Source: Carcharhinus amblyrhynchos (taxonomy: Eukaryota). From it: a stretch of 64,000 nt of DNA. A program made the position numbers and the translations under genes. The stretch covers positions 9,424,001-9,488,000 of the forward strand of contig CBDIYR020000003.1 of NCBI GenBank assembly GCA_965287045.1, in the 5' to 3' direction. The notes below the pieces were generated by a model. The model was given only the letters and a program-made list of their open reading frames with translations, searched no databases and was not told where the DNA came from. Of the stretch, positions 24,460 to 28,926 are shown piece after piece (position 1 is the stretch's first letter; each line of letters begins with the position of its first letter).

Positions 24460-24942
24460 ATGGGAATCCTTCTTGTTTTCACCGTGTGTGCCTATTTACC
24501 CCGTGAGTACCGATCAAAGTAACCCACATTGTGTGGATTGGACATAACGCTGCCCCAATTCCATCTCAGTTACAGACAGTGTGTGGGGTTTTAGCCCCGT
24601 TGTGCAGTTCGGCTCTGCTGGACTATTAAACTCTCTGTGTTTAATTTGCAGGATTTTTTAGTCAGTCAGTGACACAAAGCCCGGCAGCGGAGACCCGGAA
24701 GGAGTGTCAGTCTCTCACCATCAACTGTGTCTTCAGTGGTGTTTATGAGTTACAAAATGGCCATTTCTTCAGACAAACCCAGACCGGGACAGAGCGGGAG
24801 CGGATCTCCAGCGGAGGGAGATTTATTGTGCTGGTGAATAAAGCAGAAAAGACATTTTCGCTGGAAATTAGGGATATGAGAATTGAAGACACCGCCACCT
24901 ATTACTGTAAAGCTCAGCACTGGTACTACGCACATGGAACAC
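24460..24942 (+). CDS. NAR-TCR (IgNAR-like) V gene segment with long germline CDR3 extension (leader 24460-24502, V exon 24652-24942)
   Basis: Leader MGILLVFTVCAYLP; QSVTQSPAAETRKECQSLTINCVFSGVYELQNGHFFRQTQTGTERERISSGGRF..FSLEIRDMRIEDTATYYCKAQHWYYAHGT. It has a VNAR-type short FR2/CDR2, YYCKA, a non-canonical FR1 Cys and no Trp41. Confidence 0.92.
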
Positions 24943-24970
24943 CACAGTGGAAGACAGGAGAACAAATACT
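24943..24970 (+). promoter_or_regulatory. 12-bp-spacer recombination signal sequence
   Basis: CACAGTG + gaagacaggaga (12 nt) + ACAAATACT; no nonamer at the 23-nt position. Confidence 0.85.
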
Positions 24971-25297
24971 TCAATATTTCTGAACAAACGAAGCAATAAT
25001 TTCCAGGACACGGACCATAGATTGCGAGTTCTTGTTCCTATCGTTGCAACATGGTTGAATTTCGTTGAAATTTCCTCCATTCAGTTATCTTCCTTTAACC
25101 TTTTATTCTATTTATACGAAGTGTCCATCTCCGCTCTGTTCTTGGGCCATTTTGCCAAGAGTTCAGAATGTCGCAAGGAACAGTTTGTTTAAATGGGAGA
25201 TATAAAACAATCATTCTTCATTATTGATCTATAAACCCTGAATAATTGATAAACGCTGATTATTCAGTACTTTTTCCCGGTAGTTTACATTGCAAGT

Positions 25298-25336
25298 CAT
25301 TCTTGTACTGGGCTAAGTGACAGCGCTGACACTGTG
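25298..25336 (-). promoter_or_regulatory. 23-bp-spacer RSS of the NAR-TCR J
   Basis: cattcttgt (6/9 match to GGTTTTTGT) + 23 nt + CACTGTG, directly 5' of the J. Confidence 0.82.
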
Positions 25337-25389
25337 GGGAGAATGGAGATTTACAGATGGGTCTGGGACGGTGGTGACTGTCTCAGCTG
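25337..25389 (+). CDS. NAR-TCR J gene segment
   Basis: GEWRFTDGSGTVVTVSA (IgNAR-J-like GxGT motif) followed by a phase-1 donor G|GTAAGT; upstream RSS present. Confidence 0.9.
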
Positions 25390-27592
25390 GTAAGTGACTC
25401 CAAATCCGCCAGTGTTACAGGCGATCCAGGTTAGTTTTCACATTCAGCTCATTCTTGTAATCTGATCACTTCAATCGTCTGTGACTACAAGAGCAACGTG
25501 GGGGAAGGGGGTTCCTGTGGAAGATTTTCAACTGCAGTTTTAGATTTGGGAGCAGAGTAGGAAACTGGAGTCGGGTCCGAGTGTGGGACCAGATTGAAGC
25601 GGTGTGTGACCACCAAATGTGAGACATCGGACGGGGAAGGCAATGTCATTGACCCCATAATGACATTTAATGATTTAGTGGTGGTATTGGATAATACTAA
25701 TAACACGCGGGCTTCCTGTCTCCCAAGTGGTTTCAAATAGCGCACATTGTGAACACTATGGCTTCTGCCCTAGTGTGAACTTTGATTCTCCCTGTGGCTG
25801 TTATGAAAGGTTATCCAGTCTGGAAACGTTGACTCTATTTTCTCACCACATATGCTGTCAGACCTGTTGAGGTTTGCCAACATTTTTCTGTTTTTGGTGT
25901 TGATATAAATCTTTAGCATTATTTTATAAGTTCGTTAATGTACGTGTGGGGAAAATGATTCAGATTAAAGGAACGTTGAATATGATGCCAGTGTGATAAA
26001 AGAAAGAGAAATTGGGCAGAAAGTGGAGTGCGGTGCCACATGGAGTGGTTGCAGTGAATGGCGAAAGGACTTTTTATGACGGTGTGAAAAATCGAGCAGG
26101 GAGAAGGACGCAGTGTTCAGTGTACAAAGGTTTCGTTGGGGATCGAGTGTGAGAGGGGAGTAGGCACGTGTGCCGTGCTGACAAGCGTACTGTGAGCCGA
26201 ATGGCCAATTTCTGTTCTGTACAATCTGTAGAATGTAAAATGCAGAGAGGGTTCTGACTGCAAAACATGGGGAACAATCAACCAATGCATGGAAGGAATT
26301 GAAAATCTCAGGCACATTGAAAAGGCAAATTTCACAGTGACTAATAGTGAACAAGTCAGTCGGGGAAACTGAGCACGCTGATCTCAACTGACATTGGAGA
26401 CTGTCTGGGACAGGTTCTCATGTTGGCAAAAAATCGCAAGCAGTAGGAAGAGAACAACTCAGATTTAGAAATCCGCTGGTATTAACTGTAAATCATTCTA
26501 ATAATATAAATTACAAAATTGATGGACGAAACTGTGTAAAGAGTTAAACTGTATCAAAGTTTGATCTTTGACACATATATGCAATATCAGTTTCACTTAA
26601 TCAGTTTCGCTGGGCGAGTATGACTGTCTTCGCCTGAATCTTGCTGTGAGCCAGGATATAAAAAGGCAGGGTTACCCTCAGTTAATCTACTCTGGACAGC
26701 AATTGTTATAGTGAGAAGAGTGAACTTTCATATAATTTCCTCAGGTTTGGAAATCGCCAAGAAGCAGACACTAAATAGAAAGCATAAAATGAGAAACCAG
26801 AGAAGGGCATCATTCTGGCCAAGTGGCTATTCTTTGCAGGTGCTGCTGAACTTTACATATTTTACCTTCCTGCTCTTTAAAACTCCCGGAATTCTAATCT
26901 GATTCTGGAGATTTCTTCCATTTGCTGTTTTAAAATGACTACTGAATATGTTTCCAATATCACAGCTGGAAAATATCCTACTGAGCAAAATTCGCTGTGT
27001 GATAAAATAAAAATCATCTAAATATTTGCCCCTCGCTCTTTTGCCATTTTTTTCAATTCGTTCTAGGGATGTGGGTGTTCCTAATTGCTTTTGAACTGGT
27101 TGGCTTGTGAAGCCCATTTTAGAAGGCATTTAAGGGGAACCACATTGCTGTGGATCTGGAGTCACATGTACGCAGCACAGATAAGAATAGCAGATTTTCT
27201 TCCCTAAATGACCTTAGTGAAACAGATGTGATTTTAACGACAAGGGACAATGGTTTCATGGTCATCATTAGACTTTGGTTCAACTATTTTTGTGCAATTC
27301 AAATCAAGATTGAATTGAAATTCATATTTCACCATCTGCCGTGGCACCATTCGTTCCTGTGTCCCCAGGGTATTCCATGGATTACTAAATCTCTGGACTA
27401 ACTAATCCAGTGATAATATCACTATGCCACCCTCTTATCAATTATAGTTAATAAATGTCGAAGACCCTTCAATGAAATAATTGCGACAAAATGGTCAGCT
27501 ATTGACGCGATTATGTTTCCCCGGGCAAACTAACATGCAACGCAGGTAATGGCATCATAGAAATATTGTGCATTATTTTATGTGTTCGGCAG

Positions 27593-27898
27593 AATCCAGT
27601 TCATCTGTGTCACAGACCCCGTCTCTCCAAACCCGTGCTGCTGGCGACACCATTACTTTAACCTGCGAATATCAGGGATTTTGTCAACACACACTCGACT
27701 GGTACCGTCACTCGCCAGGACAGAGCCCAAAATACCTGCTTAAGGGATACACATCAGGCGAGGAGAACAAAGAAAACGCTGCCGGGGCGAGAATTTCTGC
27801 TTTTATCGACCCAGTCGAAAAAATCAGCCGGTTAAAGATCTCCAAGCTGCAACTGAGCGACTCCACTGTGTATTACTGTGCACTGAGTCGGCGCACAG
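27593..27898 (+). CDS. Leaderless 'supporting' TCR Vdelta of the NAR-TCR cassette
   Basis: AG acceptor at 27591-27592 in phase with the J donor (G+AA=E); ESSSSVSQTP..LTCEYQGFCQHTLDWYRHSPGQSP..SDSTVYYCALSRR; extra Cys in CDR1. Perfect RSS: CACAGTG 27899-27905, 23 nt, ACAAAAACC 27929-27937. Confidence 0.93.
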
Positions 27899-28441
27899 CA
27901 CAGTGATGCAGAATAGGGAGAGAGCTGTACAAAAACCTAGACGTGGTGAGGATTTCAGAGACAGTGATACAGAACAAGGAGGGAGCTGTACAAAAACCTG
28001 GACATGGTGAGGATTTCAGAGACAGTAATACAGAACAAGGAGAGAGCTGTACAGAAACCTGAGCATGGTGAGGATTTCAGAAACAGTGATACAGATCAAG
28101 GAGAGAGCTGTGCAAAAACCCGATATGGCGAGGATTACATACACAGTGATACATAAAAAGGAGAAGCTGTACGAAAACTTGGACATGGTCAGGTTTTCAG
28201 ACAGTGATGCAGACCACGGAGAGAGCGGTACAGAAATCTGAACATGGTGAGGATTACAGACACAGTGATACAGAACACGGAAAGAGCTGTGCAAAAGCCC
28301 GGACATGGTGAGGATTTCAGACACAGTGATACAGAACACGTAGAGAGCTGTACAAAAACCTGAACATGGTGAGGATTGTAGACACGGTGATAGAGAACAC
28401 TGGGAGAGTTGTACAGAAACCTGAACATGGTGAGCATTACA
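27899..28441 (+). repeat. Tandem array of nine ~61-bp units, each a 23-RSS (heptamer-spacer-nonamer) plus a ~22-nt linker
   Basis: Heptamers start at 27899, 27960, 28021, 28082, 28142, 28200, 28261, 28322 and 28383; each is followed after 23 nt (22 in unit 5) by an ACAAAAACC-like nonamer. Confidence 0.95.
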
Positions 28442-28620
28442 AGAATCTGTAATTTATGTTCAGGCTTTTATTCAGCTCTCTGTGTTCTGTATCACTATGT
28501 CTGTAATCCTCACAAAGCTCAGGCCTCCGTCTAGCTATTTCCCCATTTGAAATCTCTATGCCTGTAAACTTCACCATATTCAGGGTTATGTACAGCTCTT
28601 TCGTGTTCTGTGTCACTGTG

Positions 28621-28926
28621 CTGTGCGCCAACTCATTTCACAGTCAGAATCAGCAGAGTCGCTCAGTTGAAGTTTGGAGACCTTTAACCGGCTGATTCAG
28701 ACTGAAGATTGGATAGAAGCAGAAATTCTCCCCCTGACAGCATTGGCTTTATTCTCCTCTCCTAAAGTGTGTGTCTGAAGCACACATTTCGGAGCCTGTC
28801 CTCGGGTCTGACGGTACCATTGTATTGTGTACTGACAGAGACCTGAATATTCATAGCTTAAAATAAACGTGTCATCGGCAGCACAGGTTTGTACAAGGGA
28901 ACGTGGTGACACAAGTGAGCTGGAAT
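28621..28926 (-). pseudogene. Inverted pseudogene of the supporting Vdelta
   Basis: Minus strand: SSSLVSPR..ILSYEYSGLCQYTIQWYRQTRGQAP..GEENKAN..RISASIQSSV*ISRLKVSKLQLSDSADSDCEMSWRTAQ; Cys23 lost, in-frame stop, YYC degraded. RSS CACAGTG at 28620-28614 plus degenerate array units down to ~28460. Confidence 0.9.

Follow-up and report, generated by a model that had tools for sequence, protein, structure and literature searches.

The window, that is, the whole 64-kb stretch of DNA analyzed here, contains a NAR-TCR cassette that is probably best explained by an inherited fusion of V and D, likely made as a RAG joint in a germ cell, and that is predicted to need only one further cut, from V-D to J. 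Germline joining is held to be a trait of antibody genes, and a 2023 account names marsupial TCR-μ as the only TCR with a germline-joined V (PMC7615758). Provisionally, we found no description of a V-D-joined but still rearranging TCR gene in the open-licence literature. Retention of a TCR segment with fused V and D in more than one shark genus would mean that germ-cell recombination reshapes TCR genes as well and is able to fix a portion of a binding loop.

NAR-TCR is the doubly rearranging TCR-δ of cartilaginous fish (Criscitiello 2006, cited in PMC1845163, PMC5931798 and PMC12227049). As described in PMC1845163, its V segments are marked by a leader, a Cys in the a-b loop, the absence of the Trp of WYRK and a leaderless supporting V with a Cys in CDR1. 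The V segment in the window, which the sequence-only reading had assigned to NAR-TCR, has a leader, an a-b loop Cys (RKECQ) and no framework-2 Trp (GHFFRQ). Its top matches among solved structures are VNARs (E 1e-18), and its nearest database proteins are NAR V and V-δ models, the nearest named relatives coming from Mustelus asterias, which points to a carcharhiniform shark as the probable source. The leaderless supporting V-δ, with CDR1 Cys and its own 23-RSS, is located 2.2 kb beyond the NAR J, and no NAR-type leader motif was found between the two. The assignment to NAR-TCR is thus upheld. The positions of all parts are given in Table 1.

The 23-RSS of the supporting V is repeated in a tandem array. 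Several repeats are near-consensus, and similar repeats lie behind other supporting V segments; they could be alternative cut sites or decoys. An inverted supporting-V pseudogene accompanies all four fused copies described below.

Table 1. Parts of the fused cassette and its surroundings in the window, contigs from other sequencing runs that span its junction, and examples of fully joined cassettes elsewhere in the genome.
Feature	Position	Strand	Remarks
Leader exon	24460..24502	+	43 nt, phase 1, GT donor; 149-nt leader intron kept
NAR-TCR V exon, frame open	24652..24932	+	a-b loop Cys (ECQ), framework-2 Trp absent
V-encoded 3′ end, KAQHWYYA	24909-24932	+	part of NAR-TCR V exon
Germline junction and D remnant, ~10 nt (HGT)	24933..24942	+	copy L004 retains TGGG D core
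12-spacer RSS, D-3′ type	24943..24970	+	nonamer ACAAATAC, same as split cassettes
D-J spacer, no heptamer	24971..25297	+	homologous to split-cassette D-J spacers
23-spacer RSS of NAR J	25298..25336	-	heptamer 25330-25336; nonamer 3 mismatches
NAR J segment GEWRFTDGSGTVVTVSA	25337..25389	+	phase-1 donor GTAAGT
Leaderless supporting V-δ, CDR1 Cys, frame open	27593..27898	+	CEYQGFCQ; 23-RSS
23-RSS of supporting V as 61-bp tandem array, 8.9 copies	27899..28438	+	
Inverted supporting-V pseudogene with stop	28620..28924	-	belongs to duplicated unit
Contig of run X1	24908-25190		
Contig of run X5 (organism A)	24888-25099		
Contig of run X6 (organism B)	24888-25500		26 differences
Contig of run X7 (organism C)	24902-25500		21 differences
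Joined-exon cassettes, examples	L046-L048 (C39:6396999-6417098); L039-L041; L068-L070		

The NAR-TCR V of the window runs for 34 nt past its second Cys (24909-24942, KAQHWYYAHGT) and is followed by CACAGTG-12-ACAAATACT at 24943-24970, the sole 12-RSS with at most two mismatches in the window (chance expectation 0.07). The remaining V segments of the window carry 23-spacer RSSs and stop 9-19 nt after the Cys (10 parseable segments). No heptamer with at most one mismatch was found in 24971-25297 on either strand, and the J, which bears a 23-RSS, is 394 bp away from the 12-RSS with no D between them. The sequence-only reading had reported the 34-nt extension, the 12-RSS, the 23-spacer signals of the other V segments, the stretch free of heptamers and a 23-RSS J at ~395 bp, all of which our measurements bear out. 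It had also set the V end against the other V ends of the window, given as 8-18 nt; these are indeed shorter, but they are the wrong yardstick for a NAR-TCR V.

A search of the genome assembly for NAR V segments gave at least 75 matches (150 of 403 candidates scored), and the DNA was inspected at all 75: 61 are NAR-TCR-type V, 13 are IgNAR-like V and one is an unrelated V. Of the NAR-TCR-type V segments listed (at least 61), 27 are split (V-22 RSS, 12-D-12, 23-J), five have V and D fused, and the other 29 are fully joined. The V ends 16-24 nt after the Cys in all 27 split cassettes among the matches listed. Measured against these NAR-TCR V ends, the surplus of the window V is ~10 nt, not ~20, and a natively long V end is rejected. 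The split V-D-J layout of these cassettes also implies that a 12-RSS behind a long V departs from the norm. A separate D had been taken to be the normal layout, and the 27 listed cassettes of the same genome agree with this; conversely, the counter-scenario that all NAR-TCR V segments are natively long, with a 12-RSS and no D, fails on them.

With the RSS removed, the DNA between the 12-RSS and the J of the window was compared with the spacers of split cassettes (25 of the 27 cassettes; two were not parsed): z is 5.1-10.3 for their D-J spacers and -0.6 to 2.1 for their V-D spacers. The spacer and nonamer of the RSS match the D-3′ type as well. Therefore, the V-RSS, the V-D spacer and the D 5′ RSS have been lost, while the D 3′ RSS and the J are retained. 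This agrees with the earlier proposal that V was fused to D, leaving the 3′ 12-RSS of the latter, and that a single join to J is left for the outer domain, where the 12-RSS faces a 23-RSS without a D between.

A different explanation would be that the family of this cassette never had a D, either as a primary V-12/23-J design or after remodelling of the V signal from 22 to 12. In its favor, the lineage is old: leader intron and V are 82-87% identical to those of split cassettes and the D-J spacer just 57-60%, and no split member of the lineage is present among the matches listed. However, 27 of the 32 listed leader-bearing NAR-TCR V segments are split with a D, and both the D-3′ type of RSS and the D-J spacer downstream of it speak against such an origin, which we regard as very unlikely. 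Retroposition was rejected because the leader intron is retained. Because a parent split cassette is missing from the assembly (among the matches listed), the exact trimming and the added bases cannot be read off directly.

The first 22-24 nt after the Cys resemble the ends of unjoined V segments: KAHYKYYT in the same genome, KARYWYYT, which ends the V of Chiloscyllium punctatum P0006 before its heptamer, and KAQYWYW from Mustelus P0018. By this match, the aromatic HWYY is V-encoded, and the contribution of the join shrinks to ~10 nt (24933-24942), about three codons (HGT). The suggestion that the whole of 24915-24942 is D plus junctional bases is therefore not tenable. At the junction, copy L004 has TGGG, and the base concerned is identical in runs X6 and X7. 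A TGGG core is found in 21 of 25 free D segments and ATGGG in eight of 24. On the simplest reading, a V end of 24 nt would be followed at the junction by one added base and a D trimmed at its 5′ side.

P bases together with complete loss of the RSS have been taken as signs of RAG in shark germ cells, in which RAG-like joining has been published for Ig (PMC2193156). Clear P bases are absent from the fused junction, and its freedom from RSS remnants is not clean: the bases following a 22-nt V end also align, with a 4-nt gap, to the V heptamer start (CAC) and the start of the V spacer (ATGGG). This alignment would suit an ordinary deletion in the germline, in which a break inside the V heptamer was joined to D and four more bases were lost afterwards. 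The join could then lie at the TGGG common to V-RSS spacer and D core, and selection for a usable gene would place breakpoints in the same small windows. Such a deletion needs two events, whereas a single one suffices if a D with ATGGG was joined to a 24-nt V end with one base added. It is also opposed by a second, independent and putatively germline V-D join (L063, C39:4416644-4416949, minus strand), which shows no RSS remnant at C39:4416949. This join has 24 nt after the Cys with the D-like end TGGGACGAT, a standard D-3′ 12-RSS and a spacer ~95% like those of split cassettes. Its intron is ~99% identical to the nearest split cassettes, its V exon just 88-91%; the frame is open, and it is a single copy among the matches listed. 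Together with at least 29 VDJ-joined exons, it indicates that germline joining is recurrent in this gene family. We consider ordinary deletion unlikely. The earlier claim that RAG fused V to D in the germline stands for the germline part (see below); RAG is the likely agent, with ambiguous hallmarks at this junction.

The V-D fusion is almost certainly present in the germline. At least four fused copies exist on C40, with diverged flanks that are 91-99.6% identical. Copy L002 differs from the window by 17 positions in 4.08 kb and may be its other haplotype; L003 and L004, 91-97% identical to the window, are paralogues. A single contig spans V end, RSS and spacer in all four sequencing runs compared (three labelled organisms), which are unlabelled or presumed to be DNA, and one label of which may denote the species of the window itself. 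The same junction and J are found in two automatic protein models of Mustelus asterias (XP_078058109.1 and XP_078059010.1), which read KAQHWYYAHGTPQ, i.e., through the heptamer into the J. Window and Mustelus agree fully in the junction peptide, their V segments are 92% identical, and the supporting V segments are reciprocally closest (79-81% vs at most 68%). The Mustelus V groups with the four fused copies (SH-aLRT 96) in a quick tree of 88 columns without bootstrap, in which C39_9353755 is labelled joined but is split. We also considered a real PQ-FTDG splice in Mustelus, from a GT in the heptamer to an AG in the J; such a splice would also preserve the frame in the window, but in view of two poor sites we dismissed it as a model artefact with very little chance of being genuine.

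Another protein, P0002, has a V 76% identical to that of the window, the same junction and a read-through fitting a 12-RSS. A second V family with this fused junction and an unlike spacer is seen in run X6 (record 23), run X7 (record 28) and run X1 (joint 24969-25326); this P0002 type was not found in the genome assembly of the window.

Blood is a frequent source of shark assemblies, and a lymphocyte rearrangement might have been caught in the assembly. The sequence-only reading had named this possibility, with separate V and D in non-lymphoid DNA, as one that would overturn its view. The junction is, however, shared by four loci with the above flanks, by four other samples and by Mustelus, which excludes somatic capture for all practical purposes. 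Judged from these sequences, the fused junction is old and common to more than one shark genus.

We propose that in an ancestral germ cell, a 24-nt V end was joined with about one added base to a 5′-trimmed D. In thymocytes, pairing of the 12-RSS with the 23-RSS of the J, which the 12/23 rule permits, would delete 394 bp. Since V-D and J joined flush would not be in frame (34 + 1 nt), trimming or base addition would still be required, and one junction would vary rather than two. The supporting V would join D/J-δ by inversion and thereby bring a C downstream: the nearest D-J-C unit lies ~78 kb away on the opposite strand and is reachable in cis (C, five J and two D at C40:9.522-9.544 Mb, minus strand). 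The product would be a three-domain TCR-δ, the outer CDR3 of which begins with the fixed KAQHWYY(A/T)HG, followed by one variable junction before (G)EWRF.

In all four fused copies, as in the two Mustelus models, leader, V, J, supporting V and splice sites are open. These open frames and splice sites suggest use, and on this ground we think it fairly probable that the cassette is active. Alternatively, it could be an inactive relic that was spread by segmental duplication and is neither rearranged nor expressed. No rearranged product of the fused cassette was among the protein matches from two longer-homologue searches, which miss much and returned, besides gene models, two cDNA-like proteins that belong to other V families (P0046 and P0047). 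None of the datasets listed as containing this stretch is of RNA, which has no bearing on expression. The J nonamer is weak (three mismatches), copy L004 has no downstream same-strand C exon among those found, and expression of germline-joined H chains was not detected in horned shark, as given in PMC2193156. Against a relic stand the open parts listed above and a junction peptide that is identical in the window and Mustelus although the V segments differ. Loss of function is thus rather unlikely in our view, and an active cassette is preferred.

The fully VDJ-joined NAR exons, at least 29 in number, lie in nine cassettes on C39 with one to six in each at ~2.1-kb spacing (examples in Table 1). 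They follow a leader-bearing NAR V-D-J and precede the supporting V in the eight cassettes where it was reached. All 29 have an AG and a phase-1 GT, no stop, four Cys (one of them in CDR3) and no leader motif, and 28 retain the leader-intron motif, which indicates joining at the DNA level. The 29 exons group as a single clade (SH-aLRT 97, quick tree), and full joints of this type are also present in runs X1, X5 and X6. The gene models P0007 of great white and P0009 of horn shark contain two tandem joined domains. The CDR3s of lamniform models resemble the joined exons of C39, hinting at a very old join. As predicted from their sequences, the C39 arrays would encode TCR-δ chains of up to eight V domains, in which the CDR3 Cys may bond to the a-b loop Cys of the preceding domain in a disulfide daisy chain. 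The gene models P0007, P0009, P0012, P0013 and P0019, which come from great white, basking and horn shark, appear to contain joined NAR domains.

With a shark C domain as query, 22 C-δ-like exons were found, 19 on C39 and three on C40 (59 of 59 candidates scored); Pfam PF09291 had no match in the genome assembly or in controls. In the six C39 clusters examined, the supporting V is followed at 0.3-0.5 kb by a J, with no D signal detected. By analogy, the C39 order of NAR V-D-J, supporting V, J and C recalls a TCR-μ-like cluster organization of TCR-δ. Such TCR-μ clusters with their own C have been described (PMC3457774, PMC7615758).

Some further observations concern C40. An IgNAR-like V at C40:2715006 (L104, minus strand) is fully VDJ-joined, and at least 12 split IgNAR-like V segments lie at C40:1.1-2.3 Mb. 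The near-identical blocks L001/L002 and L005/L006 and three D-J-C-δ units fall at 6.17-6.37, 8.53-8.58 and 9.42-9.55 Mb of C40; such blocks are either recent duplications or an uncollapsed haplotype. The supporting V segments of L005 and L006 have a stop at the position of the CDR1 Cys.

The ligands of NAR-TCR are unknown (PMC7615758). A nearly fixed CDR3 would define one single-domain receptor that can be made and screened, which renders the ligand question testable. The three states found in one genome (split, V-D and VDJ) form a series for dating germline RAG activity. Taken together, a wider picture can be put forward tentatively, which we hold to be possible rather than probable: sharks would have used germ-cell RAG repeatedly, on the one hand for an old semi-invariant V-D-fused receptor across carcharhiniform genera, and on the other for TCR-μ-like clusters that have C exons of their own, in which a single rearranging NAR domain tops one to six invariant, Cys-linked NAR domains, giving up to eight V domains.

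Wang and Miller reportedly described in 2012 a partly germline-joined VH of the opossum, in which V and D are fused and still recombine to J; that gene belongs to a mammalian antibody heavy chain, whereas the gene in the window is a TCR. For shark Ig clusters, VD-J and VDJ germline joins have been described (PMC4279169, PMC6795676). The VD-J IgH clusters and joined Ig L genes (PMC2193156, PMC4279169, PMC6795676) resemble the present case in having V and D fused beside split paralogues, a retained intron and several independent events. In contrast, the window gene is a TCR segment shared between genera, and the Ig genes are reported to be expressed early in life.

The V-μ-j of marsupial TCR-μ likewise is a germline-joined V in a three-domain TCR, and its clusters have their own C, as on C39. 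Unlike the window V, which is outer, partly joined in DNA and has kept its RSS, V-μ-j is inner, fully joined and probably retroposed; a gene of the V-μ-j type was rejected for the window, with its outer, partly joined V and retained leader intron. One earlier record of fully joined NAR-TCR exons seems to exist: table S1 of PMC12227049 (2025) labels the great white gene LOC121270133 ‘NARTCR V(gj)V(gi)V’. In this label, which the table file leaves undefined, ‘gj’ appears to stand for germline-joined, and the main-text passages of PMC12227049 searched contain no discussion of the ‘V(gj)’ gene. LOC121270133 matches P0007 by name and species, and the CDR3 of P0007 resembles the fully joined exons of C39; the label thus refers to fully joined exons and not to the V-D-joined form. 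The closest counterpart is NAR-TCR itself, with its IgNAR-like outer V (leader present, Cys in the a-b loop, Trp absent), its own J and a leaderless supporting V-δ with CDR1 Cys. The published form is described as undergoing two independent V(D)J rearrangements (PMC5931798), whereas the outer V of the window is already fused to its D and one of its junctions is fixed.
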